DNA from: Patescibacteria group bacterium | Lineage (GTDB): Bacteria; Patescibacteriota; Patescibacteriia; UBA9570; JAHJKD01 | NCBI GenBank assembly: GCA_018822435.1 | Contig: JAHJKD010000021.1 | Coordinates: forward strand, 1 to 60,525 | Length of the DNA: 60,525 nucleotides | Direction of reading: 5' to 3' | Shown: positions 40,683 through 57,144 of the stretch, in pieces | How positions within the stretch are numbered: position 1 is the first letter of the stretch | Layout of the letters: every line of letters begins with the position of its first letter | The notes under the pieces: generated by a model | Databases searched by the model: none | Seen by the model: the letters and a program-made list of their open reading frames with translations, nothing else | Told to the model about the DNA's origin: nothing | Made by a program: the position numbers and the translations under genes

Positions 40683-41947
40683 TAAAAAGAATCTTAGGCA
40701 ATACAATCTGGATTACAATCGGACAAGGACTGGGAAAGTTTGTGGCTTTCTTGTTAATGATTTTTATTGCCCGATATTTAGGCGATGAACTTTATGGTCA
40801 ATTTTCTTTTGCTATCTCTCTCGTTGGCATCCTGGTTTTATTCGGAGACGCAGGCCTGGGCGCATATATTACCCGGGAACTGGCTAAACACAAAGACCTG
40901 ACCAAGCAATATATTGGGCAGCTTATTACACTGAAAATATTTTTATCTCTGCTGACCTTTGGATTGATATTTTTGTGTTTGTTTTTACTAGGTAAAGATC
41001 CTGTTACTCGTCAATTAACTTATATCGCGGCATTGTATGTGGTGGGCATTGGTTTTGTGGAATTTTTCTTTGCCGTGTTCCGCGCCTGGGAAAAAATGAA
41101 ATATGAAGCCATTACTAAGATCGTTTACAACTTATGTTTATTTGCCATAGGCATGGCCTTTATTCTTCTGAATTTGAGCGCTCAGGCGCTAATGAGCGCT
41201 TATGTGATCGCGACTCTGATTGCATTTATCGTGAGTTATAGTCTTATTAAAAAATATTTTACTGGTTTTAAGCTGGGCTGGGACACTAAATTCTGGAAAA
41301 TGACCCTGAAGCGTAGCTGGCCTTTTGCCCTGTCTTCTATATTTGTCGTGCTTTACTTTAAAATAGACACGGTTATGTTATCAGCTATGCGGACCGACGC
41401 GGAAGTGGGTTGGTACAATGCGGCTTATAATTTGGTGTTTGCATTAATTATGATCCCCACGATTTTTGATATTATTTTTTATCCGATTTTATCTAAAACA
41501 TTTGGCCATAAAAAAGAATTCACCCAAGTAGTGAATAAAATTTTTAGCTACGCCGTTTTAATTGCCGTACCTGTAGCAATATTTGTTTATCTGATCCGTG
41601 GCCCTTTAGTGGAATGGATTTACGCGGGAAAATACGATATGGCTATTCCTATTTTAGGAATATTAGTATGGTCTTTTATGCTTAACCTAATAAACCGCTT
41701 TCCATTTATATTAAACGCGGCTAATCTGGCGCAAATTATCACTTTTCAGGCCGGTTTAGGCGTTCTGCTTAATGTCGGGTTGAATTTTATATTAATTCCA
41801 AACTTTGGCACGATCGGAGCGGCCTGGGCAACTGTAGCCACAGAAGTATTAGCCATTGCCGTGCTTACATATTTTGGACTGTATCGATATAGAAAACTTA
41901 TTTTTTCCTCAAAGTCTGATCACTCCAGCGATACACCTGCATATTAG
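40679..41947 (+). CDS. oligosaccharide flippase (Wzx/MOP superfamily)
   Basis: 422 aa with about 12 TM helices and a typical polysaccharide-biosynthesis-protein N-terminus (ILGNTIWITIGQGLGKFVAFLLMIFIARYLG). Confidence 0.8.
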   Translation: MIKRILGNTIWITIGQGLGKFVAFLLMIFIARYLGDELYGQFSFAISLVGILVLFGDAGLGAYITRELAKHKDLTKQYIGQLITLKIFLSLLTFGLIFLCLFLLGKDPVTRQLTYIAALYVVGIGFVEFFFAVFRAWEKMKYEAITKIVYNLCLFAIGMAFILLNLSAQALMSAYVIATLIAFIVSYSLIKKYFTGFKLGWDTKFWKMTLKRSWPFALSSIFVVLYFKIDTVMLSAMRTDAEVGWYNAAYNLVFALIMIPTIFDIIFYPILSKTFGHKKEFTQVVNKIFSYAVLIAVPVAIFVYLIRGPLVEWIYAGKYDMAIPILGILVWSFMLNLINRFPFILNAANLAQIITFQAGLGVLLNVGLNFILIPNFGTIGAAWATVATEVLAIAVLTYFGLYRYRKLIFSSKSDHSSDTPAY

Positions 41948-43400
41948 TATCATTTAAATCCTCCACTTTTTCCATATTATTTTTCACGTATTTTTTCAGC
42001 TTGTAGCGCAAGTGATATTCTTTGTATTTGGGCCAGACAACCCAACCGGTCTTATTTTCTGAAACAATTTTCTTGAGTTCACCTCTCGTGAACTGCTTGT
42101 CTTTCTTTAGCTTCTTTATATTAAGGTCAGGATTGGAAAAATAGTAGGTGTGCACACCCTGGATGATAACGGGTTCTTTTGGTTTAGCATTATCTTCTAT
42201 ATATGCGTACGCCTCAGAAAAGTTATGGACTTCATCATCTTGGTAGGTCCAGTCAGCTCTGGCTTTTTGAAAAATCCCGCTGGCTTCAATGCCAGGCCAA
42301 GAAAGAATAGGGCCAGTAACCAGAAATAAGATTATGAAAACAAGGTTAATAGCGTATTTTTTCTTGAATAATTTTTTAGAAATATTATACAAGCTATCAG
42401 AATATAAAATTAAAACAAACGGAATAATAAATATTATATATTTCTTCGCCGAATACCGCCCGGCAAAAAATGTAAAGAATATCAGAACAGGGATAAACAT
42501 GGAATAATAATAAACGCGCAGCTTATTCCATTTCCAGGCCGCGAGTAATCCTAAAGCTAAGACTATCCAGCCGAGATAGGCAATTCTGATCTGATTGAAG
42601 GGAAAGCCTAAATATTCCCAGGCTGGTTCATCCCTGATGGTGATGTAATCCGGAATTACTATGGGTGCAATTAAAAATTGAAATAGCAGGCCGATTATTA
42701 TTGCTCCTAAAAAAATGGCTGTAAAAGTAAAATACCGGTTCCACTTGAATTTTTTCTGGATTAATAAGTGGATGGCATTGGCGCCAAAATAAAATAATAG
42801 GCTTAGCCCGAATAATAAGGCTGATTCATGGACTAAATAAGCAAAGCCAAGGACTAATGCTCCGGGGACGAGATAATACCAGTTAAATTTAGTTTTATTT
42901 TTTTCCAGTCCTAAAAATATCAGCCAGCAAGCCAGAACAAAGAAAAACACAAACATAGAATACATCCGCGATAAACGGGACGACCAAATAAATATCTGGT
43001 CAAAAGCAATCAGAGCCATGCTGGCCAAAGCCACAATATGATTTTTTGATAATCGGTATGACAAATAATAAACAAGCGGTAAAAGCATGATGCCAAAAAT
43101 TACAGACATAATGCGGCCGGCAAATTCATTTGTACCAAGCACTGTAAAACTTGAGGCCACCAACCATGTGTAAGGAAATGCCCGCGTGTATTCAGTAATC
43201 GGTTCTTCGGCCATAAAATCCCAGGTAACAAATTCCCCTGTCTTTAAATATCCGGTGGCGGCATCTAAATGGAAGTATTCGTCATTCTGAAAATCGATGC
43301 TGCCAAGATTGGCGTATCTTAACCATAGTCCGGCATTGAATATGATCAGGAATACTAGGGCAATAAGAATAATAGCTATCCATTGCTTATTTAATTTCAT
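41898..43400 (-). CDS. GT-C fold, PMT_2/ArnT-like glycosyltransferase
   Basis: The start MKLNKQWIAIILIALVF at 43400 is preferred. The 42-codon extension in the track (to 43526) is a read-through of the intergenic repeats. It has DEYFH in loop 1, many TM helices and a C-terminal soluble domain. Confidence 0.8.
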   Translation of the reverse strand: MKLNKQWIAIILIALVFLIIFNAGLWLRYANLGSIDFQNDEYFHLDAATGYLKTGEFVTWDFMAEEPITEYTRAFPYTWLVASSFTVLGTNEFAGRIMSVIFGIMLLPLVYYLSYRLSKNHIVALASMALIAFDQIFIWSSRLSRMYSMFVFFFVLACWLIFLGLEKNKTKFNWYYLVPGALVLGFAYLVHESALLFGLSLLFYFGANAIHLLIQKKFKWNRYFTFTAIFLGAIIIGLLFQFLIAPIVIPDYITIRDEPAWEYLGFPFNQIRIAYLGWIVLALGLLAAWKWNKLRVYYYSMFIPVLIFFTFFAGRYSAKKYIIFIIPFVLILYSDSLYNISKKLFKKKYAINLVFIILFLVTGPILSWPGIEASGIFQKARADWTYQDDEVHNFSEAYAYIEDNAKPKEPVIIQGVHTYYFSNPDLNIKKLKKDKQFTRGELKKIVSENKTGWVVWPKYKEYHLRYKLKKYVKNNMEKVEDLNDTNMQVYRWSDQTLRKK

Positions 43401-43407
43401 ATGGGCA

Positions 43408-43541
43408 AGTATATTAGATATCTTGATTAAAATCAATCTTACCCCCAATGAATTGGGGGCTGAATAATTTAACATATTTGACCAAGCCCCAAATTTATTT
43501 GGGGTATTGGTCTTGATTAAAATCAAGGTTTATACTATAAT
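43408..43541. promoter_or_regulatory. mirror-image divergent promoter pair, two identical 16-nt boxes and two CCCCAA/TTGGGG hairpins
   Basis: TCTTGATTAAAATCAA occurs at 43421-43436 and again at 43511-43526. The hairpins are CCCCCAATGAATTGGGGG (43442-43459) and CCCCAAATTTATTTGGGG (43488-43505). On the plus strand the order is TTGATT (43513-18), 17 nt, TATAAT (43536-41), 7 nt, ATG 43549. On the minus strand it is TTGATT (43436-31), 17 nt, TATACT (43413-08), 7 nt, ATG 43400. Confidence 0.4.
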
Positions 43542-43548
43542 AGCGCTC

Positions 43549-44466
43549 ATGGATGAAAATATAAAGATCTCAATAATTATCCCGGTTGTGGGCGAAAAAT
43601 TACTGCCTGCTTGCTTAGAATCAATTAAAAAACTGGATTATCCGAAGGAAAATCTGGAAATAATTGTTGTTAATAATTTACCTGAAAACACTAAGATTAA
43701 GGAAGTAAGCGATAAATTTAATGTTAAATATACAGAAGAAAAAAAACGAGGGTCTTATCGGGCCAGGAATATGGGCGGATTCAAAGCTCGGGGAAAGATA
43801 TTGGCATTTACTGACGTCGATTGTGAAGTTAACCGCGAATGGCTAAAGCAGGCGGAAAAATCTTTAGAAAATTCAGATATAGTAATTGGCTGGAACGAAG
43901 GCATAAATGCCAATAAAACGGCGGCGTTAGAACAGGCTTTTTACGAAAAAATCTTCACTGATTTTACCAAAAAAGAAAAACTGGACCGGATTGATACGCG
44001 TAATTGTGCCATGAAAAAAGATGTCTTTAAAAAACTGGATGGTTTTCAAGACAAGCTGGCTTTTGGCGGTGATATGGAATTTGGGGCCCGGGCAGCAGAT
44101 GCCGGTCTGAAAATCACTTTTAATAATGACATGAAAGTGAAACACAGAAATCCGGCCAAGCTCATGCCTCTGATTGCCAAACGGATTACCCAGAATTTTG
44201 ATAATTATAATATTACGGAGTTTCATGATGATGAATTTTTGAAAAAATATTTTCCGCATATATATGATTATAAATTGCTCGAGCAGAAAAAATTCTTGAT
44301 AAATTTAAAACGCATGTATTATCAGATGATATTAGGACTGAATTATTTTCTAGCGCCGGTTTTGATTTTGATTTTACCAGGCACGCTGGCCTATATTTAT
44401 TATAAAAAGCTGAATGGCCTTTGCATGCATTTCGGCTTTTTGGCGAATATTTCCCGGAGGAAATGA
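43549..44466 (+). CDS. GT2 glycosyltransferase
   Basis: The start MDENIKISIIIPVVGEK at 43549 is preferred over the non-ATG track start at 43507. It has a FTDVDCEV DxD motif and a C-terminal TM segment. Confidence 0.8.
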   Translation: MDENIKISIIIPVVGEKLLPACLESIKKLDYPKENLEIIVVNNLPENTKIKEVSDKFNVKYTEEKKRGSYRARNMGGFKARGKILAFTDVDCEVNREWLKQAEKSLENSDIVIGWNEGINANKTAALEQAFYEKIFTDFTKKEKLDRIDTRNCAMKKDVFKKLDGFQDKLAFGGDMEFGARAADAGLKITFNNDMKVKHRNPAKLMPLIAKRITQNFDNYNITEFHDDEFLKKYFPHIYDYKLLEQKKFLINLKRMYYQMILGLNYFLAPVLILILPGTLAYIYYKKLNGLCMHFGFLANISRRK

Positions 44467-45911
44467 TTTTTAAAAAAATCGCATCAAACTTAACTTCTAT
44501 AATGGCGGCCCGGATTTTATTCCAGGTTTTTAATGCTGTCACCCAGATCACGATCGCGCGCATGCTCGGGGTGGAACTTTTTGGCGTATTTTCAACGGCC
44601 CTCGCCCTGGTAAATGCATTTTTAGTAGCTAATGACATCGGCATGTCCACCCTAATGATAAAGGAAGGGTCGCATATGCGGGAAAAAATCAAGTTTTTCC
44701 TGGGCAATACCCTGCTGGTACAGCTATTTGCCTCCCTGCTGTTTTATACCGTTGCCTTAGTTGTGGGTTTTTCCATCGGGTATTCGTTCCAGATAATGAT
44801 GCTGGTCATGATACTCGGCGTGGCCTACATGATCTTTGAATTCCGCAAACCGTTCCGGGCGGTTTTACGCATATTGCTCAAACTGAAGAAAATAGCTGTT
44901 TTTGAAATTATTTGCGGTGCCCTGATCATGGTTTCGGTAATTTCCCTTTCTTTTACCGGCCTTTCCAAAACGACGCTGCTTCTTGCGGTCGTATTAGTGG
45001 AGTTGGCCGGGTATATAGCCCTTTCATTGGCTATTTATATTTACATGCGCCGATTTATTCGTCCCGATTTCAGCCACCGAAAGCAGATCAGGAGCGAACT
45101 GAAAATATCGTGGAAGTACTCGTTTTATAATGTCATGTTCATCCTGTATTTGCAGCTTTCCATCATTATGACCGCGGCCATTGCCGGCAGTGAACAAGCC
45201 GGCCTATATTCAGCGGCGTCCAAGCTTGTCGTTCTCTTGTTTATGGTGCCCCAGATGATATTTCAAATCGGATTGCCTCTATTATTCAAATATTTTAAGA
45301 CTGACCGGGAAAAATATAAGAGGGTCCACGCCTTTATTTTCAAATATCTTACCGCTTTCGGCTTTCCGGTGGCCGTGGGCATGTGGATGCTGTCCGACCC
45401 GATAATTTCACTGATATACGGGCATGAAGGATATGGCCCGTCTGCGCAAGCTCTCCAATTTTTTGCCATTTTTATTATGTTCCGCTTCCTGGGAAATATT
45501 TCCGGCCAATCATTAACGACATCAGACCGTCAAAACCAGGAAAATATCATTGTCTTGATCTACACGATATTTTTAGTTATCGGCAATTATTTCATGATCG
45601 GCGCTTACGGCTTCATGGGAGCCGTTTATATGACGGTAATTTGCGAAGTTTTGCTCCGGGTGACTTATATGATCGTTGATTTTTCCCACCTGCGCATCGC
45701 TATCTGGCCTTACCTGAAAAAAGTCTTTCCGGTTGTCCTCTCTTGCGCTTTTATGTCCGTCTTCATATACTTTACACAGGACATTTTTAATGTTATTATC
45801 GTCATTATATTTTCAGGCATTTTCTATGGATTATTCCTTTGGCTGTTCCGATTTTTCGACAAATATGACAAAACATTATTTTCCCAATTAATTACAAAAA
45901 ATAAAGGTTAA
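44463..45911 (+). CDS. oligosaccharide flippase (Wzx/MOP superfamily)
   Basis: The start MIFKKIASNLTSIMAARILFQV at 44463 forms an ATGA overlap with the preceding stop. About 12-14 TM helices. Confidence 0.75.
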   Translation: MIFKKIASNLTSIMAARILFQVFNAVTQITIARMLGVELFGVFSTALALVNAFLVANDIGMSTLMIKEGSHMREKIKFFLGNTLLVQLFASLLFYTVALVVGFSIGYSFQIMMLVMILGVAYMIFEFRKPFRAVLRILLKLKKIAVFEIICGALIMVSVISLSFTGLSKTTLLLAVVLVELAGYIALSLAIYIYMRRFIRPDFSHRKQIRSELKISWKYSFYNVMFILYLQLSIIMTAAIAGSEQAGLYSAASKLVVLLFMVPQMIFQIGLPLLFKYFKTDREKYKRVHAFIFKYLTAFGFPVAVGMWMLSDPIISLIYGHEGYGPSAQALQFFAIFIMFRFLGNISGQSLTTSDRQNQENIIVLIYTIFLVIGNYFMIGAYGFMGAVYMTVICEVLLRVTYMIVDFSHLRIAIWPYLKKVFPVVLSCAFMSVFIYFTQDIFNVIIVIIFSGIFYGLFLWLFRFFDKYDKTLFSQLITKNKG

Positions 45912-45912
45912 T

Positions 45913-46653
45913 ATGCAAACAATTATCCTGGCCGCTGGCCAAGGTACGAGGCTAGCCCCTCTGTGCGATGAGATACCAAAAACATTACTGGCTTTGGATG
46001 ACAAAACCATTCTTGAACATATTTTTAATGTTTGTGTTAATTGTGGTTTGTATGATTTTTCGATTGTAACCGGGCACGGGCATCAGGCAGTAGATACTTT
46101 TTTAACCGATTATTTAATTCAGAGACCAGACATAAGAACAGAACTTATTTACAATGGTGAATATTTGAAAAAAGGAAATATATATTCTTACTACATGACT
46201 AAAGAAATTTTTCATGATGATGATCATGTAATAATCAATTCCGATACAATTTTTCACCAGAGCATTTTAGAAGACCTGCTTAACCATCCGGAAAAAAATG
46301 TTATGGCAATTGATGATGAAAAGGAGCTATCAGAAGAAGAAATGAAAGTCCTGCTCTGTGATCAAGGTAAAATAAACAAAATTCATAAATCAATTGACCC
46401 CGGGGAAGCTAAAGGTGAATATATTGGCTTAATGAAGCTCGGCCGGGAATACGCTTCTCAAATTGAAGAAGGTTTGGAAAAAACAATGTCTGAAGATGAC
46501 TCTCTTTATTATGAGGATGGTTTGCAAAAAGCGATTGATTTGGGCTTGACTATTCATCCCTTAAGCACAAAAGGGCGTCCGGCCATGGAAGTTGATACGC
46601 ATAACGATCTCGTAGACGCCAAGGAAATGATCAAAGATATTAGACTTTCATAA
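45913..46653 (+). CDS. sugar/polyol-phosphate nucleotidyltransferase (cytidylyltransferase-like)
   Basis: 246 aa. The N-terminal LAAGQGTRLAPL...PKTLL signature indicates the NTP_transferase fold. Confidence 0.8.
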   Translation: MQTIILAAGQGTRLAPLCDEIPKTLLALDDKTILEHIFNVCVNCGLYDFSIVTGHGHQAVDTFLTDYLIQRPDIRTELIYNGEYLKKGNIYSYYMTKEIFHDDDHVIINSDTIFHQSILEDLLNHPEKNVMAIDDEKELSEEEMKVLLCDQGKINKIHKSIDPGEAKGEYIGLMKLGREYASQIEEGLEKTMSEDDSLYYEDGLQKAIDLGLTIHPLSTKGRPAMEVDTHNDLVDAKEMIKDIRLS

Positions 46654-46654
46654 T

Positions 46655-47704
46655 ATGTCCGTAATATCCCGAAACATTCCTGCTCCCCTTTTTATAAAGA
46701 TAGAATCTGGCGCTTTTCGGAAATTAAAAAAAGTCCTGAAAGAAAATCATATTGAATTTGATAAACCGTTAATTATTTCAGAACGGAAAGTTTTAGAACT
46801 GGGCGGGAATGAAATAGTACGATCATTCGGCGAACCCGGCATTCATCTGGCCAAAGATAATTCTATTTCAGAGGGAGATGAGATTGGCATCAGCTTAAGG
46901 CAAAATAATAATGACGTCGTAATTTGTATCGGGGGCGGACGCATTCTTGATCTGGGAAAATATGCCGCTACCAAAGCTAAGCTAAACTATATCAGTATTC
47001 CTACTTCACCTTCTAATGACGGACTAGCTTCTCCTGTGGCTGTCTTAAAAAATAGCATTGGATTAACAGAAAGCCTGGGCGTGAACATGCCCATGGGAAT
47101 TTTAGTTGACCTGGATATGATGAAATCAGCCCCGATTGATAATATTAAAGCCGGCACTGGGGACCTGCTCTCTAATTTCTCTGCTTTAGAAGACTGGAAA
47201 CTGGCTTACGACGAAAATAAAGAGGGAATGGATGACTTTGCCGCATCCCTGGCTTATTCCGCGGCCGACCTGATGTATGGCAAGTTTGCCGGGTGCCAAA
47301 AAGTGGAACTTGATGAAGAGAAATTTTTAAAAACCCTAGTCAACGGATTGATACTATCAGGCATTGCCATGAATATTGCCGGATCTTCCCGCCCTTGTTC
47401 GGGCGCGGAACATGAAATATCCCACGCGATTGATAAATTATTTCCGGGCCGGTCCATGCACGGGCTTCAGGTTTCTCTGGGTATTTTGATAGCTGAGAAA
47501 TTAAGGAAAAAAGATTTTGAGAATTATAATAAGTTTTTTGAACTGATCGGCCTGCCAACCCGGGCTGAAGATATTGGCCTGACTGATGATGAATTAATGC
47601 AAGCATTAGAACTGGCACCCAATACTCGACCGGATCGGTTCACAATATTAGAAAAAAAGAATTTAGATAAAAAAAAGATCAAAGAATTAGTTAAATCACT
47701 TTAA
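46655..47704 (+). CDS. egsA: sn-glycerol-1-phosphate dehydrogenase family (EgsA/AraM-like, Fe-ADH superfamily)
   Basis: 349 aa. GGGRILDLGKYAATKAKLNYISIPTSPSNDGLASPVAVL, AGTGDLLSNFSALEDWKLA, SRPCSGAEHEISHAID and HGLQVSLG match the conserved G1PDH blocks as I remember them. Confidence 0.8.
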   Translation: MSVISRNIPAPLFIKIESGAFRKLKKVLKENHIEFDKPLIISERKVLELGGNEIVRSFGEPGIHLAKDNSISEGDEIGISLRQNNNDVVICIGGGRILDLGKYAATKAKLNYISIPTSPSNDGLASPVAVLKNSIGLTESLGVNMPMGILVDLDMMKSAPIDNIKAGTGDLLSNFSALEDWKLAYDENKEGMDDFAASLAYSAADLMYGKFAGCQKVELDEEKFLKTLVNGLILSGIAMNIAGSSRPCSGAEHEISHAIDKLFPGRSMHGLQVSLGILIAEKLRKKDFENYNKFFELIGLPTRAEDIGLTDDELMQALELAPNTRPDRFTILEKKNLDKKKIKELVKSL

Positions 47705-48429
47705 TGGAGGAAAACGACCCAAGAAGGGTTATTAAAAAAGAAGACGGCCTGTGGGCTTATTATTTTATTGCCCAGCTGGGCAATATTTTTGCCCGCATCG
47801 GGACTCGGGAAAAATTTCTAACTCCTAATCTTTATACTACTCTGTCATTCCTATTAGTAATGGCCGCATGTGTTTTATTTGCTGGATTCAGAGATTATTG
47901 GTACATGATTATCGGGGCTGTTCTTATTAATTTAGCCTTGGCATTTGATTGCGCTGACGGACAGCTGGCCCGCCTATCTAATCAGATGAGCAAGCTGGGC
48001 CATTGGTATGATTATCATTCTGATAAAATCAAAGACGGCATAATTTTAATATCTCTTACTATTGCCGCTTATTACCAGACAGAATGGATCTGGTTGTTTT
48101 TTGTTGCCTTCGGCACCATATTTTTCCAGTTTCTCAGAAATATTACCCGGTTGAACAGAGTAATTTTTCAATTAGAGACTAAAGGCGAAATTAAAGATAA
48201 GAAAGCAGTTGAGGATAGCAAAGTTAAATCGCAGTTCATGCGCAGCTTTCGCCATTCGCTTTTATTTAAAGAAGCTGATCGTTACTTTCTGTTTACAATT
48301 GCAATTGTTTTAAATCAAGTAGCAATAGGTTTAATTATTTATTTCGCTTTAGAAATTATTTTTGCCGCCGTATCAGCGGCAATATCTTATAAAGAATACG
48401 CCCGGTATGACCGACGCATGGCAAGATAG
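47704..48429 (+). CDS. CDP-alcohol phosphatidyltransferase family protein
   Basis: 241 aa, polytopic. The signature D-x2-D-G-x2-A-R-x8-G-x3-D-x3-D is present as DCADGQLARLSNQMSKLGHWYDYHSD. Confidence 0.85.
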   Translation: MEENDPRRVIKKEDGLWAYYFIAQLGNIFARIGTREKFLTPNLYTTLSFLLVMAACVLFAGFRDYWYMIIGAVLINLALAFDCADGQLARLSNQMSKLGHWYDYHSDKIKDGIILISLTIAAYYQTEWIWLFFVAFGTIFFQFLRNITRLNRVIFQLETKGEIKDKKAVEDSKVKSQFMRSFRHSLLFKEADRYFLFTIAIVLNQVAIGLIIYFALEIIFAAVSAAISYKEYARYDRRMAR

Positions 48430-48432
48430 CCA

Positions 48433-48510
48433 TGAAAGCGGATTTCACAAATCCGCCTATATGAACCCGTCTGCCAAAGCACGTATGGCGGACATGTGAT
48501 GTCCGCTTTC
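48433..48510. repeat. twin-hairpin GC-rich repeat, copy 2
   Basis: The left arm is TGAAAGCGGATTTCACAAATCCGCC (48433-48457). A 29-nt spacer follows, then the right arm GGCGGACATGTGATGTCCGCTTTC (48487-48510). It lies between two co-directional genes. Confidence 0.85.
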
Positions 48511-48534
48511 CATAAATATAATCAAATATAAAAT

Positions 48535-50127
48535 ATGAACAAAGTAGTAGTAATCGGACTTGATGGCGGAACTTTTAAATTACTGAAACCTTTAGCCGAA
48601 GAAGGCGTCATGCCGAATTTCAAGAAACTTTTAGACCAAGGCTCTTCTTCTATTTTATGGTCCACGATGCCGCCGATGACAGGCACAGCCTGGTCCAGCT
48701 TTGCCACAGGAAAAACTCCGGGGAAACACACGGTGTATGACTTTTTATTGCCGGATGAAGATCTATCACAATTTCATATTACTTCGGGAAAAGATATTAA
48801 AGGAAAGACTTTACCAGAAATAATATATGAAAATAGCAAACATCCAATTACGGTAAACATGCCTAATTCCTGGCCTCCTCGTCTAGGAAAGACCGGCGAG
48901 GTAGTAATTACTTCAATTCTGACCCAGGGCGACCAATGGATCTGGCCGGAAGGCTTGGAAAAAGAAATCCCGGAATTAAAAGATTATCAACTTACGCCAA
49001 ATGAATCACTCCGATTAAAAGGAGCAAAAGACTCTTATGCTGATGCGGTCCTTGATCTGGCAGATAAACAAATGGCTTGTGTAAAAAAATTATTCAAGCA
49101 AAAACCCTGGGACTTCTTCTTTTATTTATTTTCATCAACTGACTGGATCCAGCATGCTTCTTTTGACGAGTTAATGGAAAACAGGGCTGAGTCCCCACTT
49201 AGAATCTATAAACAAGTCGATGAATATCTCGGCTGGTTTATGGATAGCCTGCCAGAAGGGGCTGATCTGATGATCATGTCTGATCATGGCTTTAAATCAT
49301 TCAAGAAGACTTTTTTCTTCAATAAATGGCTGGAAAAAGAAGGTTACTTAAAAACCAAATCTACGGGAGATGATTTTAAGCAAGCTGTGACCCGCCGCGC
49401 TAAAGAGACTGAGAAAGTCCGGGCGAAAAAGAAAAAGTTCAGCATTGGAAAACCGATTTTTGATCTGATGGAGAAAATGCCTTGGTTAGAAAAGCCGGCC
49501 AAAAATGTTTATCATAAAGTTGTAAAAAAATACCTGCCTGTAAATGTGAAGGTTGATATCGGCATTGATTATGATCATACCAAATGTTGCTTTCCTAAAG
49601 GATCATATATGACCAATGCTTATATTAATGATACGAAGAAATTTAAAAATGGCGTGGTTAAAACTGACGAGGAATATAATCAAATTCGTGACGAAATTAT
49701 AAGGAAAATTAAAAATCTCAAAGGCCCTGACGGCGAACCGGTCGTCTCTGATGTATTTACCAAAGAACAAATTTACGGTGAAGACACGGCCACTATGTGC
49801 CCGGATCTTTTCTTTAAGCACGCGGACTATTGGCTGGACGGCCAGTTCCACACGGGAAAATTATTTGAAGAAGGCGTGGTTTCCAATAAACATGATTTTG
49901 ACGGCGTATTCATCGCCTATGGCCCCAGCTTCAAAGAAGGCCATAAGATCAAACAAAAAATCGGCATCAAGGATATTGCGCCGAATATTCTGCACCTGAT
50001 GGATGTGCCCGTACCGAAAGATATGGATGGCGTAATTATTGAAGAAATTTACAAAGAAAAAAAGCCTGTTAATTATCAGACGGAAAAAAGTGAAATCAGC
50101 GGCATGCTGGATGATATTGATATATAA
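48535..50127 (+). CDS. alkaline-phosphatase superfamily protein (type I phosphodiesterase/nucleotide pyrophosphatase-like), cytoplasmic
   Basis: 530 aa with no TM helices or signal peptide. Metal-site Asp in VIGLDGGTF, nucleophile region TMPPMTGTAWSSFATG, and MIMSDHGF. Confidence 0.75.
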   Translation: MNKVVVIGLDGGTFKLLKPLAEEGVMPNFKKLLDQGSSSILWSTMPPMTGTAWSSFATGKTPGKHTVYDFLLPDEDLSQFHITSGKDIKGKTLPEIIYENSKHPITVNMPNSWPPRLGKTGEVVITSILTQGDQWIWPEGLEKEIPELKDYQLTPNESLRLKGAKDSYADAVLDLADKQMACVKKLFKQKPWDFFFYLFSSTDWIQHASFDELMENRAESPLRIYKQVDEYLGWFMDSLPEGADLMIMSDHGFKSFKKTFFFNKWLEKEGYLKTKSTGDDFKQAVTRRAKETEKVRAKKKKFSIGKPIFDLMEKMPWLEKPAKNVYHKVVKKYLPVNVKVDIGIDYDHTKCCFPKGSYMTNAYINDTKKFKNGVVKTDEEYNQIRDEIIRKIKNLKGPDGEPVVSDVFTKEQIYGEDTATMCPDLFFKHADYWLDGQFHTGKLFEEGVVSNKHDFDGVFIAYGPSFKEGHKIKQKIGIKDIAPNILHLMDVPVPKDMDGVIIEEIYKEKKPVNYQTEKSEISGMLDDIDI

Positions 50128-50132
50128 AATTT

Positions 50133-50819
50133 ATGAAATTTGAACGGCAGGAACCTAAAGGTAAAATTGATGTGGACATTACCCAGGGTGAAAAAGTCGG
50201 ATCCGGACATTTTGGGGATGTTTATTTAGTGGAAGGAAAAATTGGCAATCATAAAAAAGAATTTGTTATAAAAAGATATAAAGATGATCTTGGCGATAGT
50301 TTTGATTCCCTCATGGATGCCAAAAAAGCTTTTAGTAATCATAGCAAGGCAAAAAAAGCCGGCTTAAAAGTTTTTCCTACGTATAGGCTAAGTGAAGACA
50401 AAAATAGCATTTTAATGACCTCAGCTGCAGGTGAGGGGAAATATTGCCTGGCTATAACAATTGATGAGATTGATCGGAGCTATGTGGATTCTAAAGGTTT
50501 TGAAAATATTAAAGAAATTCCTAACTTTGAAGAACTGGCCAATAATATTTTTAAAGGAGCCGTAAAGGCAGCTGAAAATAATATTTTTCTCTATATGGAT
50601 TCTTATTTTTTTATGACTGGTGAAAATGAAGATGTTGATTATGTAATTGGAGATCTGGATCTTGTCTATGAAATGCCGGATGTCAAATCAGAGAATTTAA
50701 ATAAAGTAAATTTAAAAGCGGCCAAAAAGGCGCTGGATCAATTCCTGGCCACTTATACGGATTGCCGTGATAAATACAAACCTGAACTGGAAGAGATATT
50801 CTCAGCTTATTTAGAATAA
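50133..50819 (+). CDS. minimal protein-kinase-like fold protein (putative small-molecule kinase)
   Basis: 228 aa. Gly-rich loop GSGHFGDVY, a VAIK-like FVIKRY, and a DFG-like IGDLD. No HRD motif is present. Confidence 0.4.
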   Translation: MKFERQEPKGKIDVDITQGEKVGSGHFGDVYLVEGKIGNHKKEFVIKRYKDDLGDSFDSLMDAKKAFSNHSKAKKAGLKVFPTYRLSEDKNSILMTSAAGEGKYCLAITIDEIDRSYVDSKGFENIKEIPNFEELANNIFKGAVKAAENNIFLYMDSYFFMTGENEDVDYVIGDLDLVYEMPDVKSENLNKVNLKAAKKALDQFLATYTDCRDKYKPELEEIFSAYLE

Positions 50820-50824
50820 TAGCT

Positions 50825-50863
50825 AAAAACTATCCTGCCCCTTCAGGGGTAGGATAGTTTTTT
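50825..50863. terminator. bidirectional rho-independent terminator (hairpin family 2, intergenic copy)
   Basis: The order is A5, CTATCCTGCCCC, loop TTCA, GGGGTAGGATAG, T6. It lies between convergent genes ending at 50819 and 50878. Confidence 0.75.
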
Positions 50864-50877
50864 ATTTACAAAATAAA

Positions 50878-51552
50878 TTATTCTGCTTTAGATAATCTCC
50901 AAGCACTTAAAACCTGCTTGATAATAAGCGGTATACTGATCAGAATGATGAAGACCAGTAAATATATTTCAATGTTGAAGATAACAGCCAGAGAAACAGC
51001 ATAAATGGTGATGTCGACCGTGCCTAAATAAATTTTTTCCGTGATATAAAATTCAGCGGTCCGCGTGGTGGGCCAGCTGGATTTTTTGGCTTCGCGCAGA
51101 TAGCCGACCATCAGCCACAGAACCATGGCCGCGGCGCCAATAACAATGCCGAAAGTAAGGTGGGTTTCCGACCACCAGAGATAAGTCATGGCCGCGAACA
51201 TGAGCATTTCTTTGATGCGGTCGGAAATAGAATCAAACCAGGCCCCGAATTTGGAAGACATGTTCTTGATACGGGCAATCTCACCATCAGAGCAATCAAG
51301 AGCAAAACCGACCTGTAAGAGAACGACACCGAATAAACGCCACCAATAATAAGGCATCATGAAAAATACGGCCGCCAGGATCGTGATCATGAAGGACAGC
51401 ATGGAAACCTGATTCGGCGTAACGCGCGGATCCAGCTTCATCAGCCAGAAAGTGAACAAACGAGAAAGACGCCGCGTGAACAGCGTGGAAAATATGCTGT
51501 CGTGCGGTTTTTGATAGGCTTTGACGTCGCTAATCTTTTGGGGTAAGTTCAT
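50878..51552 (-). CDS. CDP-alcohol phosphatidyltransferase family protein (second copy)
   Basis: 224 aa, polytopic. The signature reads DCSDGEIARIKNMSSKFGAWFDSISD. Confidence 0.85.
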   Translation of the reverse strand: MNLPQKISDVKAYQKPHDSIFSTLFTRRLSRLFTFWLMKLDPRVTPNQVSMLSFMITILAAVFFMMPYYWWRLFGVVLLQVGFALDCSDGEIARIKNMSSKFGAWFDSISDRIKEMLMFAAMTYLWWSETHLTFGIVIGAAAMVLWLMVGYLREAKKSSWPTTRTAEFYITEKIYLGTVDITIYAVSLAVIFNIEIYLLVFIILISIPLIIKQVLSAWRLSKAE

Positions 51553-53359
51553 ATATTTTTACTTCATCTACCAGGTCAAACTGGTAAGAGCCGTATTCAT
51601 TTAAATTATAATTTTTATTTAAGAAATCATTGGTGACTGCTTGGGTGCCGGAATCCTGCCAGAAATAAATTGTATAACCTTCGTCCATTAATTTGTCCAT
51701 GAACTCCCTGACCTGATCATTGTCAAACACAAACTTTTCCTGTTCCATGGGCGTGCGCACTGTTTTTAAGCCCGTATGCGTTTCCATGGTTTCAGACAAA
51801 CCATATTGCCAGCGGCCACTAAACATGAGTATTGGCGGCAGACTGTCCTGCCCCTTTAGGGGTAGGACAGTCGAGCCAGCCGGGGCAGTCGAGCCAGCAT
51901 GCTCTTGATTAATACTATCACCTATCTCAATTAAGGTTAACAGGTCATTTTGAGAAATAGCCTTGTTTTTTAACACTTCTAATTCTATATTTTCTTTTAC
52001 CTCAGAATAAGCCGGAACATAGATGACCAGAATCGATAGGACCGCCAGAGCGCCCACCAGATACGATATGCGCTTGGATTTAAATAAAGATGGAATCAGT
52101 ACCGATAAAACCCAATACAAGCCAAAAGAGCCTAATATGGCCAAGGCAGGAAAGGCCACGATCATATACCGGGAATAAGGATTGATCCACATGCTGAAGA
52201 GAGCAAGAAAGCCAAGTACCCATAATGCCAGAAAGGCGGATAAAAATTTATTCTTGCGCCAGATAAAGATAATGCCGATTATGACGAGGATCATGAAATA
52301 AGGGATCCACGACATCCGGTTGTTCATGATATCCCAATAATGCTTCAGTCCCCCGTTTTCAGTTTTGAATTTTCCGCGGCTTTCGAAAATATTTAACGGG
52401 CTTAATGAAGTGACATGATCAATATTTGATACGACTACAGATCCGGAAGTGTCTTTTTTCTTGAAGGCCTCTTTGTTTGCAGAAATATCCACGGAGTTTT
52501 TGATAGTCAGGCCAAGGGGAATAATCATGAGGATGGCAAAAACCAGGAGCAAGCGCGATATTTGCATCGTGTTTATTTTCCGGGTTTTTTGCTTGTCCCA
52601 GAACAGACCGAACAAAACAAGATAAGCGGGTAAAAATGCGACTCCGGTATGGCGGATGTTTAAGCTAAAGCCTAAACATAAAATACTTAAAATAATTAAA
52701 GCAAGTTGAAAGCGGACGTCACTACGTCCGCCACCACCGGATGATAGGCGGATTTTGTGAAATCCGCTTTCAAATTGGTAAAAAGCCAGCAAAAATAAAT
52801 AAACAGAAAGAAGTATAAAAAACAATGAAGGGATCTCACGCATAGGCTGCGAAATCGCATAGTCATAGTATAAGCTTGAGAATCCGACAGTTATGGCCGC
52901 GAGCAAGCCAAATGCCCAGCCCCATTTTTTTATTTTAAGTGCTTTGAATAAAAGCTGACAAATTAAGAAGATTAATATTAAGTTCAAGGCGGCCAAAACC
53001 GGAACAACCGAATATATAGAAAGGTCGTTTCCAGTAATAGTTGCGGTCCAGTACATAATATAAGACAGGCCAACCGGATATATTGAAGACAGCCAGCCAT
53101 CCGGAGAAATTATTTCATGATGGGTCGGGGTAAGCCAGCGGGCCAGGCGCTCGTCGCCGAAATGTTCTATCCCCTTTTGGACGAGTTCATCCTGATAAAC
53201 CAAAGGCTCGCCCTGAAGCAGGCGTCCGGCCAAATACAAATAACCCGGACTGTCATCGCCCCAGGCGCCATATGCGTGGTTCTGCCAGTAGATCCAGCCG
53301 AAGCCCAGGCCTAAAATTAAAACAAGGATAATCGTAATTATCCAGGCGTACTTTTTCAT
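51530..53359 (-). CDS. GT-C fold polytopic glycosyltransferase-like protein carrying two in-frame repeat insertions
   Basis: 609 aa with GDDSPGYLYLAG in the first loop, more than 10 TM helices and a C-terminal soluble domain. It contains twin-hairpin repeat copy 4 (52707-52772) and a family-2 hairpin (51843-51870) without any frame disruption. Confidence 0.75.
   Translation of the reverse strand: MKKYAWIITIILVLILGLGFGWIYWQNHAYGAWGDDSPGYLYLAGRLLQGEPLVYQDELVQKGIEHFGDERLARWLTPTHHEIISPDGWLSSIYPVGLSYIMYWTATITGNDLSIYSVVPVLAALNLILIFLICQLLFKALKIKKWGWAFGLLAAITVGFSSLYYDYAISQPMREIPSLFFILLSVYLFLLAFYQFESGFHKIRLSSGGGGRSDVRFQLALIILSILCLGFSLNIRHTGVAFLPAYLVLFGLFWDKQKTRKINTMQISRLLLVFAILMIIPLGLTIKNSVDISANKEAFKKKDTSGSVVVSNIDHVTSLSPLNIFESRGKFKTENGGLKHYWDIMNNRMSWIPYFMILVIIGIIFIWRKNKFLSAFLALWVLGFLALFSMWINPYSRYMIVAFPALAILGSFGLYWVLSVLIPSLFKSKRISYLVGALAVLSILVIYVPAYSEVKENIELEVLKNKAISQNDLLTLIEIGDSINQEHAGSTAPAGSTVLPLKGQDSLPPILMFSGRWQYGLSETMETHTGLKTVRTPMEQEKFVFDNDQVREFMDKLMDEGYTIYFWQDSGTQAVTNDFLNKNYNLNEYGSYQFDLVDEVKIYELTPKD
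51843..51898. repeat. hairpin family 2, intragenic copy, plus an 18-nt tandem duplication
   Basis: CTGTCCTGCCCCTTTAGGGGTAGGACAG spans 51843-51870. CAGTCGAGCCAGC is repeated at 51868-51880 and 51886-51898. On the minus strand the region is translated as AGSTAPAGSTVLPLKGQDS. Confidence 0.8.
52707..52772. repeat. twin-hairpin GC-rich repeat, copy 4, inside a CDS (66 nt, in frame)
   Basis: The left arm TGAAAGCGGACGTCACTACGTCCGCC is followed by a 14-nt spacer and the right arm GGCGGATTTTGTGAAATCCGCTTTCA. On the minus strand it is translated as ESGFHKIRLSSGGGGRSDVRFQ. Confidence 0.85.
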
Positions 53360-53385: not shown

Positions 53386-54879
53386 TTATTTCAAGGGATT
53401 ATGATTTATTCTTCTGATTAGGAAAATTGCCGATGCTCCAGCAAATAAAGTTAAAATAAGAGTAAAATATGTGAATTCAGGTACGCCAGGTCCGGGCGGC
53501 TCCTCATCGCTTTCATAAGGGCCGATATCATAACCGGATCCCTGCGGCCGGGCCGTACCCATAATATCTATTGTCACGGCCGCGATCGTAAGGCCATTAT
53601 CCACTCCGCTCCAGGTATTATCGCGGATAAAACGGGTGACATAAAACGTATCACTGGCGCCGACGCCGTAATCTGAAGGCGCATACCCTATTTCCGGTCG
53701 GGCCACATTAAGAGTATTTTCGTCATTATCAATGATATACCACATATGCCGGGTGTCGTCGTCCGGCACAAAGTAATATCCGCCCATCATGAACTGGTGC
53801 GCTGTCCACGGACTGCCGCTCACGTTGATGTCTGTCACGAAGTCATAGGCATTACTACCGCTTTCTGTTAGGGAGCTGACTGTTCCGGTAGCGGTTTTTA
53901 TGAAATTCGGATCATCACTATTTGTGTTTGGTCCTTTTGAACACTGGTCGAGATATATATCACCCCCATTGTTGTACCAGCTGTTGTAATCAAAGGTGCC
54001 GCAATTCGAACCTAGCAATCTTCGGAGCGCATACCCTTCAGCTCCATAAAACATATTATTGTAAAAAACCGGAGCCACCACATTATATAGGTTCAATTGG
54101 TTGGTGGTAAACATGTTGTTATAGTACAAGGGTGAACCAAATATATAGGCGGGAGGACCGCCCCATGCAAAGATACTATTAAATGCCTGTAGTGATGGAG
54201 GGTACTGACCGTCTCCGTTTGATAGACGCGACTGATAAATATTGGCAATACCACCACCGGTTGGAGTGCTTACGAGGGCCATGGGGCCGCCGGCCAGTTC
54301 TGAATTCTGCAAAGTGCCGGATGAATTCATTATTATCTGAATCCCGCTATTTGAGCCAGTGCCATTCTGGGTAGACCAAACGTCATCAAGCGTATAATTC
54401 GTACAATTACGTGAATCAATGCCATTATTGATATTTCGGTTGGCCCAGATGCGCGTGACAACCGGACACGCAGTTGCGGAAGGGCTGATCCAGATTCCTG
54501 CTTTGCCGGTTCCGGCACCGGTAACCTGTAAATCCTGAATGATTACCGCGTCACTTAGGGCATTGGCGTCAATACAATGGTCAACGGGCGAAGCGCCTGA
54601 GCAATCAATAATAGTTTGTGTCCGTCCTGCCCCGAGCAGGTCAATTTCTTTAATCAGGTTTACATCTTCAAAATATGTCCCTGCGGCGATGCTCATGCTG
54701 TCGCCGTTCGCACCCTGGCCGATTGCATAATTGATCGTACAGCACGGGCTTCCCGCGGTCTGGCAATTTCCAATATCCGCGCAACCATCATCATCAACAT
54801 AAAGATCAGCCGCCATGGCCATGCCGGCTGCTCCGAAGATTCCAAAACATAAAATTAGGAGATATCCTCCGATTTTCAT
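53386..54879 (-). CDS. secreted parallel beta-helix protein with PEF-CTERM-like sorting tail
   Basis: 497 aa. It has a signal peptide (MKIGGYLLILCFGIFGAAGMAMA), a Cys-rich N-terminal cap and Asn/Gly/Ser-rich beta-helix repeats. The sequence ends ARPQGSGYDIGPYE...PGPGVPEFTYFTLILTLFAGASAIFLIRRINHNPLK. Confidence 0.8.
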   Translation of the reverse strand: MKIGGYLLILCFGIFGAAGMAMAADLYVDDDGCADIGNCQTAGSPCCTINYAIGQGANGDSMSIAAGTYFEDVNLIKEIDLLGAGRTQTIIDCSGASPVDHCIDANALSDAVIIQDLQVTGAGTGKAGIWISPSATACPVVTRIWANRNINNGIDSRNCTNYTLDDVWSTQNGTGSNSGIQIIMNSSGTLQNSELAGGPMALVSTPTGGGIANIYQSRLSNGDGQYPPSLQAFNSIFAWGGPPAYIFGSPLYYNNMFTTNQLNLYNVVAPVFYNNMFYGAEGYALRRLLGSNCGTFDYNSWYNNGGDIYLDQCSKGPNTNSDDPNFIKTATGTVSSLTESGSNAYDFVTDINVSGSPWTAHQFMMGGYYFVPDDDTRHMWYIIDNDENTLNVARPEIGYAPSDYGVGASDTFYVTRFIRDNTWSGVDNGLTIAAVTIDIMGTARPQGSGYDIGPYESDEEPPGPGVPEFTYFTLILTLFAGASAIFLIRRINHNPLK

Positions 54880-56015: not shown

Positions 56016-56080
56016 TGAAAGCGGACATCACATGTCCGCCAACAGTTTTTTATAGGCGGATGTAGTGACATCCGCTTTCA
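56016..56080. repeat. twin-hairpin GC-rich repeat, copy 3 (divergent intergenic region)
   Basis: The left arm is TGAAAGCGGACATCACATGTCCGCC (56016-56040). A 14-nt spacer follows, then the right arm GGCGGATGTAGTGACATCCGCTTTCA (56055-56080). Both arms are identical to those of copy 1. Confidence 0.85.
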
Positions 56081-56085
56081 TCCCA

Positions 56086-56114
56086 TTGAAAAATGTACTA
56101 TTCCTTAGTATAAT
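56086..56114 (+). promoter_or_regulatory. sigma70-like promoter candidate abutting the exosortase-family gene
   Basis: TTGAAA (56086-91), a 17-nt spacer, then TATAAT (56109-14). The ATG at 56122 is 7 nt after the -10 box. Confidence 0.4.
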
Positions 56115-56121
56115 ATATTAT

Positions 56122-57123: not shown

Positions 57124-57144
57124 GCCAGCCTTGGCTGGTTTTTT
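57124..57144. terminator. weak hairpin plus T-run between convergent genes
   Basis: GCCAGCCTTGGCTGG is followed by a T6 run (57139-57144). The stem is short and the T-run overlaps the stop of the minus-strand gene. Confidence 0.3.

Follow-up and report, generated by a model that had tools for sequence, protein, structure and literature searches.

Glycerol-1-phosphate dehydrogenase (G1PDH) is regarded as the enzyme defining the archaeal side of the 'lipid divide'. Where it occurs in bacteria (Actinobacteria, Firmicutes and others), this has been read as a potential for archaeal-like lipids (PMC6431249). Which product does such a gene serve when it is located among bacterial surface-glycan genes? 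This question is raised by a contig of 60,525 nucleotides (nt) from a Patescibacteria group bacterium (JAHJKD010000021.1, assembly GCA_018822435.1; the complete contig is referred to as the window), in which a G1PDH-like gene lies between the genes for a nucleotidyltransferase and a cytidine diphosphate (CDP)-alcohol phosphotransferase (CDP-AP). The original prediction, made from this stretch alone, was that the module makes a CDP-activated glycerol or other polyol phosphate and transfers it to a lipid or glycan acceptor, possibly in connection with an archaeosortase-like system nearby. Our analysis favors one version of this: the cassette probably forms sn-glycerol-1-phosphate, activates it to CDP-glycerol and transfers glycerol phosphate onto a surface glycan, all within a glycan island. 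The functions in this reading are deduced from homology and synteny. The module consists of the following genes:

45913-46653, plus strand: nucleotidyltransferase of the NTP_transferase fold, 246 aa (PF00483, E-value 2e-11)
46655-47704, plus strand: G1PDH-like dehydrogenase of the Fe-ADH_2 type, 349 aa (Fe-ADH_2, E-value 1e-28; NCBIfam G1PDH, E-value 3e-79)
47704-48429, plus strand: CDP-alcohol phosphotransferase A, 241 aa (PF01066, E-value 1.5e-14)
48535-50127, plus strand: cytoplasmic alkaline-phosphatase-superfamily enzyme resembling nucleotide pyrophosphatases/phosphodiesterases (NPP), 530 aa (PF01663, E-value 1.7e-35)
50133-50819, plus strand: small protein with a protein-kinase-like fold, 228 aa (AlphaFold and Foldseek)
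50878-51552, minus strand: CDP-alcohol phosphotransferase B, 224 aa (PF01066, E-value 6.6e-17)

All six open reading frames (ORFs) were found where they had been placed and in the families named for them, and each of the peptides quoted in support (LAAGQGTRL, IPTSPSNDGLASP, SALEDWKLA, SGAEHEISHAID and DCADGQLAR) is present in the translations. The plus-strand genes are packed in an operon-like manner with 1-nt gaps or overlaps. The stop codon of a Wzx flippase gene ends 1 nt ahead of the nucleotidyltransferase start, the nucleotidyltransferase stop lies 1 nt ahead of the G1PDH start, and the G1PDH stop codon shares 1 nt with the start codon of the transferase A gene. Transferase B and a gene for a 609-aa GT-C-like protein overlap by 23 nt on the minus strand. 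A hydropathy scan detected no hydrophobic segments in the four soluble module proteins, which are therefore cytoplasmic. A bacterial source is indicated for the dehydrogenase by an NCBI protein named 'Patescibacteria group bacterium', which is 100% identical across the aligned 96% of the query; bacterial-type genes for MurA, Ddl and ribosomal protein L9 are also present in the window.

We compared the dehydrogenase with EgsA, AraM, GldA and dehydroquinate synthase by ranking bit scores against curated hidden Markov models (HMMs) and PDB sequences. It scores 100.3 bits against PF13685 (Fe-ADH_2, cut-off 28) and 266.6 bits against the NCBIfam G1PDH model NF002022, compared to 76.6 bits for GldA and 30 bits for AroB, corresponding to margins of about 190 bits over GldA and about 235 bits over dehydroquinate synthase. 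All 34 aligned relatives likewise match the G1PDH model with the best E-value by far. Among PDB sequences the uppermost is 3ce9 (181 bits), followed by the archaeal G1PDHs 5fb3 and 4rgq (about 150 bits); true GldAs reach at most 68 bits. Residues D170, H253 and H269 align with the motifs GIGDLL, SEH and HG of the P. calidifontis G1PDH 5fb3 and are invariant or nearly so across the clade. We take them to be the ligands of the metal triad as in the structures of GldA and G1PDH. A C-terminal RPDR motif common to archaeal G1PDH is conserved as well. The enzyme thus groups with G1PDH and not with GldA or dehydroquinate synthase, as had been predicted, and it is inferred from these similarities to reduce dihydroxyacetone phosphate (DHAP) to sn-glycerol-1-phosphate.

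The nucleotidyltransferase preceding it matches, over its full length, the inositol-phosphate cytidylyltransferase (IPCT) half of the bifunctional IPCT/DIPP synthase (DIPPS) with 61 bits (61.3). Its closest PDB sequences are LicC (1jyk), a phospho-alcohol cytidylyltransferase, and 4jd0 of T. maritima, presumably an IPCT. We infer from sequence that the 246-aa protein is a CTP:sn-glycerol-1-phosphate cytidylyltransferase.

Both CDP-APs carry a complete family signature: DCADGQLARx8GxxxDxxxD at residues 82-107 of transferase A (DCADGQLARLSNQMSKLGHWYDYHSD) and DCSDGEIARx8GxxxDxxxD at residues 86-111 of transferase B (DCSDGEIARIKNMSSKFGAWFDSISD). Against PF01066 they score 55 and 63 bits, respectively (cut-off 22), with a mutual identity of 31%. 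Nearest to both of them is AF2299, and next DIPPS. AF2299 is the best PDB match of transferase A, which also shows a weak likeness to choline/ethanolamine phosphotransferases (27-31 bits); transferase B scores 70 bits against AF2299 and 42 bits against DIPPS. In NCBIfam the top match of transferase A is archaetidylinositol-phosphate synthase (64 bits, cut-off 180), that of transferase B the DIPPS half of IPCT/DIPPS (80 bits, precisely 79.6; transferase A 34 bits). Both remain far under the cut-offs for PgsA, PssA, PIPS, AIPS and DIPPS, and transferase A is under every NCBIfam cut-off. For pgsA (TIGR00560, cut-off 109 bits) transferases A and B reach 30.7 and 18.4 bits, for pssA (TIGR00473, cut-off 107 bits) 26.9 and 32.1 bits. 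By score both are therefore outside the housekeeping phospholipid synthases, in agreement with the original prediction, and we rejected a PgsA or PssA role (18.4-32.1 bits against cut-offs of 109 and 107). A core of six transmembrane (TM) helices is compatible with their length (241 and 224 aa) and with the way they align to the membrane domain of AF2299; a crude hydropathy scan resolved only 3-4 strong segments. In AF2299 the pocket holds the glycerol of CDP-glycerol, and neither AF2299 nor DIPPS processes lipids; six-TM CDP-APs use soluble acceptors, e.g. inositol phosphate, while those with lipid acceptors typically carry 3-4 additional C-terminal helices (PMC4634129).

Is the coupling of these genes conserved? 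A scan of GTDB genomes returned at least 554 relatives of the dehydrogenase, of which the best 80 were examined; the sample thus represents the 80 closest relatives, not all bacterial G1PDHs. Loci were counted if enough flanking sequence was available (69 upstream, 76 downstream). Directly upstream of the G1PDH gene a nucleotidyltransferase is encoded in 64 of 69 loci (66 of 69 after inspecting two script misses). A CDP-AP gene is located directly downstream in 54 of 76; this may be an undercount for high-GC loci, where CDP-APs were searched for with distant queries. Patescibacteria contigs at 55-63% dehydrogenase identity share one gene order with the window: (GT2–GT4–GT2–PMT–GT2)–Wzx–nucleotidyltransferase–G1PDH–CDP-AP A–NPP-like–CDP-AP B(−)–GT-C(−). 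Exceptions are two locally rearranged loci (L013, L014) and one without the NPP-like gene (L004); in L089 the order is also GT2, Wzx, nucleotidyltransferase. In most of the fetched Patescibacteria loci a Wzx homologue lies directly 5' of the nucleotidyltransferase gene. Orthologues of transferase A are found directly 3' of the G1PDH gene, and those of transferase B accompany the GT-C-like gene in L004, L006, L012, L013 and L089. The gene neighborhoods in Patescibacteria and GTDB loci thus show the module genes to be tightly linked and not scattered, as anticipated.

The triad of nucleotidyltransferase, G1PDH and CDP-AP recurs in Actinomycetota and in one DPANN archaeon. Carriers that are not of the Patescibacteria type include Micromonospora, Kitasatospora, Streptomyces, Gaiellaceae and a metagenome-assembled genome (MAG) of Bifidobacterium breve. 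A Saccharibacteria MAG carries a CDP-AP as well, whereas WOR-3 and Chthoniobacterales MAGs possess the nucleotidyltransferase–G1PDH pair only. On the Woesearchaeota contig (L088, 3769-7056) the order is CDP-AP, a fusion of nucleotidyltransferase and HAD-IIA phosphatase-like domain, G1PDH and Wzx, in a glycan cluster. Although archaeal, this G1PDH copy looks glycan-linked rather than lipid-linked. The taxonomic spread has to be read with care, since some MAG labels appear unreliable: the contigs labelled 'uncultured Bifidobacterium sp.' (L027, 34% GC) and 'uncultured actinobacterium' (L021) have a GC content of 34-37%, unusually low for Actinomycetota, and may be misassigned bins.

Two variants of the cassette bear on its substrate. 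In four low-GC MAG loci (L021, L024, L026, L027) no CDP-AP is found and a gene for a TagF-like CDP-glycerol glycerophosphotransferase (PF04464) adjoins the nucleotidyltransferase–G1PDH pair in divergent orientation; in L034 a PF04464 protein is encoded elsewhere in the locus. It seems that one type of transferase has functionally replaced the other here. In other loci (L004/L005, L009) GpsA (sn-glycerol-3-phosphate dehydrogenase) and a second nucleotidyltransferase of the NTP_transf_3 type form a pair in or beside the cassette, and in L034 a weaker GpsA-like match only (74 bits) lies beside a second nucleotidyltransferase. A GpsA pair beside the G1PDH pair suggests that both enantiomers of CDP-glycerol are made from one locus with two CDP-APs. 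TagF-like genes and GpsA pairs together point to glycerol phosphate as the substrate and to CDP-glycerol as the product of the cassette. Their positions are:

L021, 3404-4684: TagF-like Glyphos_transf gene
L026, 4517-5803: TagF-like Glyphos_transf gene
L027, 1853-3019: TagF-like Glyphos_transf gene
L024, 1-966: TagF-like Glyphos_transf gene
L004, 9099-10789 (also L005): GpsA and nucleotidyltransferase pair
L009, 1004-2727: GpsA and nucleotidyltransferase pair
L034, 9262-11658: GpsA-like and nucleotidyltransferase pair

The destination of the product is indicated by the surroundings. In actinomycete loci the neighbors are GT2, TarS-like GT2, Stealth and Bac_transf genes. A synteny survey of Streptomyces from 2026 lists araM, a sugar-phosphate nucleotidyltransferase, a CDP-alcohol transferase and a GT2 gene adjoining tagG/tagH (PMC13118837). 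Together with the Wzx, GT2, GT4 and GT-C genes these neighbors argue for a surface polymer. Two further features of the actinomycete CDP-APs were observed. In Kitasatospora, the B. breve MAG and Gaiellaceae the last Asp of the signature of the downstream CDP-AP is replaced by His (DxxDGxxARx8GxxxDxxxH), and some Streptomyces and actinomycete loci have an additional, upstream CDP-AP fused to DUF5941 (His variants or fusions in L071 11040-11885, L060 2255-2962 and L035 11037-11777, as well as L063 7612-9276 and L065 8212-9285).

In the window itself the module is part of a single surface-glycan island extending from approximately 12 kb to 56 kb (about 45 kb). It comprises sugar-nucleotide genes of the Rml type and the GDP-mannose-dehydratase type, about 10 glycosyltransferases of families GT2 and GT4, two MOP flippases and three GT-C-type membrane proteins. 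A WecA/MraY-like initiating transferase is encoded upstream of the island (1013-2065). The genes directly adjoining the module are:

41898-43526, minus strand: GT-C membrane protein of the PMT/PMT_2 type, 542 aa, conserved upstream neighbor (Pfam PMT, PMT_2)
43507-44466, plus strand: GT2 glycosyltransferase between the PMT-like and Wzx genes (Pfam Glycos_transf_2)
44421-45911, plus strand: MOP/Wzx-type flippase, 496 aa, opening the plus-strand run (Pfam Polysacc_synt, Polysacc_synt_3; NCBIfam MOP flippase)
51530-53359, minus strand: GT-C-like polytopic membrane protein, 609 aa (hhalign to the PMT_2-type family)

The gene of the 609-aa protein is co-oriented with transferase B and lies directly upstream of it. 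The protein has at least 9 hydrophobic segments and a C-terminal soluble domain in the hydropathy scan. It shows no direct Pfam match, and its family profile found nothing in the PDB by sequence. The same profile aligns with the PMT_2-type family of the 542-aa neighbor (hhalign probability 96%, E-value 1.8e-9), and because of this homology we regard the 609-aa protein as GT-C-like. Its orthologues show weak PMT/PMT_2 matches, and a WGDDS motif (residues 33-37) is invariant. The 542-aa protein itself weakly matches Agl23, and its homologues are similarly placed in L006, L008, L010, L012, L013 and L089. Four other large ORFs of the island, located at 18748-21569, 31405-32853 and 36089-37627 (460, 480, 482 and 512 aa), have no Pfam matches; only the 512-aa ORF was scanned against NCBIfam as well. 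They could be polymerase- or ligase-type membrane proteins. Neither tRNA genes nor Rfam matches were found in the window, and a scan of it for promoters and terminators was uninformative (40 promoter-like sites compared to 36 expected).

Sulfur genes are associated with the cassette and with the island. The island includes three tandem sulfotransferase genes with an interposed GT4 gene (26812-30650). In related Patescibacteria the G1PDH module is directly followed by genes for APS kinase, a DHH phosphoesterase and a second Phosphodiest-family protein of 460 aa (L089 14737-18943, L006 14216-17077; ATP sulfurylase in L089 only). Because of the island sulfotransferases and of the sulfur-activation genes following the module in related loci, the surface polymer is probably sulfated as well as glycerophosphorylated.

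From these observations the following pathway can be proposed. The 349-aa enzyme of the G1PDH family would reduce DHAP to sn-glycerol-1-phosphate, which the LicC/IPCT-like nucleotidyltransferase would convert with CTP to CDP-glycerol of a chirality opposite to the TagD product. The AF2299/DIPPS-like transferases A and B would then move glycerol phosphate from CDP-glycerol to a hydroxyl acceptor, releasing CMP. As the context is uniformly one of envelope-polymer assembly and a TagF-type enzyme replaces the CDP-AP in some loci, the most probable acceptor is a sugar within a polyprenyl-linked glycan intermediate on the cytoplasmic side of the membrane. The decorated unit would be exported by the adjoining Wzx flippase, and the GT-C-type enzymes (609 aa and 542 aa) would handle it on the outer side. 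This would yield an anionic surface polymer that is glycerophosphorylated and teichoic-acid-like, with no need for TagD, TagF or a phosphatidylglycerol donor; it could be a poly(glycosyl-glycerol-phosphate) or else a glycan bearing glycerol phosphate as single side groups.

Two of the six proteins are regarded as accessory to this scheme. The 530-aa protein matches PF01663 with 123.7 bits (cut-off 23). Its AlphaFold model (pLDDT 92) finds ENPP1/3/5/6/7 and the Xanthomonas NPP as best Foldseek matches (E-values 1e-18 to 1e-14). All seven residues of the bimetal site and nucleophile (D10, T49, D203, H207, D250, H251, H453) are present and show little or no variation within the family of the protein. 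By predicted fold and active site it is thus an NPP-type diesterase or pyrophosphatase and not an evident monoesterase. Characterised NPPs are typically secreted or ecto-enzymes; here the hydropathy scan found no transmembrane or hydrophobic segment, and as the catalytic DG motif begins at residue 10 there is no room for a signal peptide. The description as a cytoplasmic member of the alkaline-phosphatase superfamily is thereby upheld. The gene is kept in the module in L006/L011, L008, L009, L012, L013, L014 and L089 and is absent from most actinomycete loci; in L054, L057 and L085 it directly follows the G1PDH gene and precedes a Bac_transf initiating transferase. The enzyme could have CDP-glycerol as its substrate, which it would edit or hydrolyse, or could trim a phosphodiester intermediate. 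For the 228-aa ORF Pfam and NCBIfam returned no family matches, and sequence searches gave only marginal matches to the kinase N-lobe. Its AlphaFold model (pLDDT 93) shows a minimal protein-kinase-like fold with PRPK/Bud32 and Rio1 as best Foldseek matches. It belongs to an unannotated family of about 286 representatives of 230-250 aa in which K47 and D174 are invariant. The predicted kinase-like character was thus confirmed at the level of the modelled fold; its membership in the conserved module was not, as searching the related loci L001-L087 gave no homologue. We consider it a strain-specific local accessory.

An exosortase/archaeosortase gene is indeed located near the module (56065-57099, plus strand). 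It scores 51.3 bits against TIGR04178 (exo_archaeo, cut-off 23) with the signature present, and archaeosortase C is the highest-scoring specific model (62 bits, under the cut-off of 100). Three secreted right-handed beta-helix 'choice-of-anchor Q' proteins are encoded on the minus strand (53386-54879, 57143-58498 and 58519-59832). All of them end with GVPEFT, a hydrophobic helix and basic residues, resembling a PEF-CTERM sorting signal. On that strand the gene at 53386-54879 immediately precedes those of the GT-C-like protein and transferase B. A functional tie between module and sorting system found no support: an exosortase gene near G1PDH was found only in the window and in L007, where the nucleotidyltransferase–G1PDH pair occurs with EpsH/EpsI, and phmmer searches with the exosortase of the window and EpsH of L007 detected none in the other fetched loci. 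The prediction that a CDP-activated glycerol phosphate is transferred to a lipid or glycan acceptor is independently supported by the gene neighborhoods of about 90 related loci, but its link to the archaeosortase is not. Among the options offered, a glycerol-phosphate decoration of the glycan fits best.

Could the cassette serve lipids instead? CDP-(sn-1)-glycerol might be combined with diacylglycerol or polyprenol in a Kennedy-type reaction, giving phosphatidylglycerol or an anchor of the glycerophospholipid type. The product could hold the PEF-CTERM proteins of the exosortase, or the route could serve a lipid-scavenging cell of the candidate phyla radiation (CPR) in remodelling host lipids. 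sn-Glycerol-1-phosphate matches the head group of phosphatidylglycerol in chirality, transferase A weakly resembles choline/ethanolamine phosphotransferases (see above), and the ArtC-like exosortase and the three PEF-CTERM-like proteins are encoded within 1-8 kb, one of them in the minus-strand run of transferase B; L007 shows a comparable coupling. We nevertheless regard a lipid head group or anchor as improbable, given that an exosortase was seen at these two loci only and that TagF-like substitution points to polymer chemistry. Judged from length and alignment, the extra C-terminal helices of lipid-acceptor CDP-APs appear to be absent here (compare PMC4634129). The assumption that cassette-bearing actinomycetes make phosphatidylglycerol in the ordinary way argues in the same direction. 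Synthesis of archaeal-type ether lipids, with G1PDH providing the backbone for GGGPS/DGGGPS and the CDP-APs adding head groups, is suggested by G1PDH as the hallmark enzyme of that pathway and by the top match of transferase A to archaetidylinositol-phosphate synthase. That match of 64 bits is, however, far under the cut-off of 180, and the G1PDH is coupled to a soluble-substrate nucleotidyltransferase instead. No Pfam or NCBIfam match to GGGPS/PcrB, UbiA-type or CarS-type enzymes was obtained among the scanned ORFs of the window, which comprised most of those with ≥120 aa and of which several matched no family, nor did any appear in the Pfam-annotated neighborhoods of the related loci. On the basis of these ORFs and neighborhoods we rejected a role in archaeal lipid synthesis, which appears very unlikely indeed.

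The relatives of the cassette in (hyper)thermophiles raise another alternative, namely that CDP-glycerol and a phosphorylated polyol are joined and then dephosphorylated to a soluble phosphodiester used as compatible solute (di-myo-inositol phosphate (DIP), diglycerol phosphate or glycerophosphoinositol type). IPCT, DIPPS and AF2299 are the nearest characterised relatives of the three proteins concerned, and 224-241 aa fit the six-TM class with soluble acceptors (PMC4634129). Prokaryotic CDP-APs usually act on phosphorylated acceptors, followed by a phosphatase, and the module includes a cytoplasmic gene of the alkaline-phosphatase superfamily. This gene product is, however, of the NPP type and missing in most actinomycete loci, as described. 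In Patescibacteria the cassette is closely spaced with flippase, glycosyltransferase and GT-C genes, and elsewhere it lies beside TagF-like, TarS-like, Bac_transf, Stealth and tagGH genes. A solute pathway is for these reasons unlikely. Its inositol-based (DIP) form was rejected: G1PDH and not inositol-phosphate synthase directly follows the nucleotidyltransferase, variant loci contain GpsA and TagF-like genes, and an inositol-phosphate synthase was not seen in the window. The dehydrogenase might also act on another ketose or polyol phosphate, so that the module would activate a different polyol phosphate or acid. Every member tested is under the G1PDH equivalog cut-off, including the Woesearchaeota homologue (236-326 bits for the actinomycete, WOR-3 and Woesearchaeota proteins), and the best PDB match 3ce9 is not known to have been characterised functionally. 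Against this stand the wide margin by which the G1PDH model scores best, the conserved RPDR motif of archaeal G1PDH, and the GpsA pairs and TagF-like CDP-glycerol transferases, which point to glycerol phosphate. We assign little probability to another substrate.

Several observations weigh against glycerophosphotransfer onto a glycan. To our knowledge no CDP-alcohol phosphotransferase with a glycan acceptor has been described. The six-TM architecture is tied to soluble acceptors and suits a soluble-solute pathway, too (PMC4634129). With 267 bits the dehydrogenase is below the curated equivalog cut-off of 413 for G1PDH, and neither its substrate nor its stereochemistry is more than an extrapolation. 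For the nucleotidyltransferase, specificity for CTP is deduced from the partner genes, and its NCBIfam matches to UTP- and dTTP-sugar enzymes are equally weak. The scheme gives no reason for two transferases in one module, which might serve two acceptor positions, divide priming from extension, or use two enantiomers where GpsA is present. Nor does it account for the NPP-like enzyme; an activity able to destroy CDP-glycerol fits oddly in a pathway making it.

What does a surface-glycan role imply for bacterial G1PDH in general? Full-text searching found no functional study of the cassette; the only mention was the synteny remark on Streptomyces (PMC13118837). The coupling to a cytidylyltransferase in 64-66 of the 69 closest relatives with enough upstream sequence, mostly together with a CDP-AP or TagF-like gene, and the location in envelope clusters suggest a physiological role that differs from lipid synthesis and can be tested. 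We tentatively extend this to a wider proposal, which we hold to be a real possibility: many bacterial and some DPANN G1PDHs would not be lipid genes but would feed sn-glycerol-1-phosphate into surface polymers by a hitherto undescribed route that needs neither TagD nor TagF nor phosphatidylglycerol, with CDP-(sn-1)-glycerol as the substrate of CDP-APs acting as glycan glycerophosphotransferases. If this is true, bacterial G1PDH is weakened as evidence for archaeal-like lipids in the debate on the lipid divide. A third route for glycerol phosphate onto envelope polymers would exist besides TagD/TagF and LtaS/GacH, and the acceptor range of the CDP-APs would be widened by glycans, a class new to this family. 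The envelope of uncultured CPR bacteria would include an anionic, glycerophosphorylated and probably sulfated glycan; lipid-poor cells would make teichoic-acid-like polymers with the chirality of lipoteichoic acid, assembled in the cytoplasm. Culturable carriers (Streptomyces, Kitasatospora, Micromonospora; also the B. breve MAG) make the cassette accessible to ordinary genetics and wall-polymer chemistry.

How does the proposed system relate to known ones? In the TagD/TagF (Tar) system a cytidylyltransferase also makes CDP-glycerol, and a membrane-associated transferase adds glycerol phosphate to a lipid-linked glycan, which is then exported. Its genes are likewise located in a cell-wall polymer cluster, PF04464 genes lie beside the nucleotidyltransferase–G1PDH pair in four loci, and the Streptomyces loci show synteny with tagG/tagH. 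In contrast, glycerol phosphate would here be provided by G1PDH (sn-1) and not by GpsA (sn-3), the cytidylyltransferase has the NTP_transferase fold instead of the TagD fold, the transferases are integral-membrane CDP-APs and not TagF-type enzymes, and export in the CPR loci would proceed by Wzx rather than TagGH. Neither the TagF-type (PF04464) nor the TagD-type family was found among the scanned ORFs of the window. With LtaS/GacH the cassette would share an envelope polymer bearing sn-1 glycerol phosphate as end product, but these enzymes are extracellular, use phosphatidylglycerol as donor and contain a sulfatase-type domain of the alkaline-phosphatase superfamily. Here the donor would be a cytoplasmic nucleotide-activated glycerol, and the member of this superfamily is the cytoplasmic NPP-like protein.

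LicC/LicD carry out the phosphocholine decoration of pneumococcal teichoic acids, and Gtp1-3 constitute a CDP-2-glycerol pathway for capsules. As in the cassette, a cytidylyltransferase of the NTP_transferase fold activates a small phospho-alcohol for a surface glycan, a dedicated supply enzyme is encoded within the glycan locus, and LicC is the top PDB match of the nucleotidyltransferase. They differ in the transferase fold (LicD), in the alcohol (choline or 2-glycerol) and in requiring a kinase, where the cassette has a dehydrogenase as supplier. With EgsA and AraM the dehydrogenase shares the fold, the metal triad and the RPDR motif, and its highest-scoring profile and PDB entries are of this type; it differs in its score below the equivalog cut-off, in its partners (a cytidylyltransferase and CDP-APs and not GGGPS/PcrB) and in its presumed role in polymer building instead of the lipid backbone. 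In sequence, the nucleotidyltransferase and both transferases are closest to IPCT/DIPP synthase and AF2299 of Archaeoglobus, Thermococcus and Thermotoga, in which a soluble alcohol phosphate is likewise converted to a CDP-alcohol and then used by a six-TM CDP-AP. Unlike IPCT/DIPPS (NF041135) the genes of the cassette are separate and not fused (61-80 bits against a cut-off of 580), G1PDH is attached in place of inositol-phosphate synthase, and the context is a surface glycan in hosts with no indication of thermophily. In the way it would work the system thus resembles both TagD/TagF and IPCT/DIPPS, while being a member of neither.

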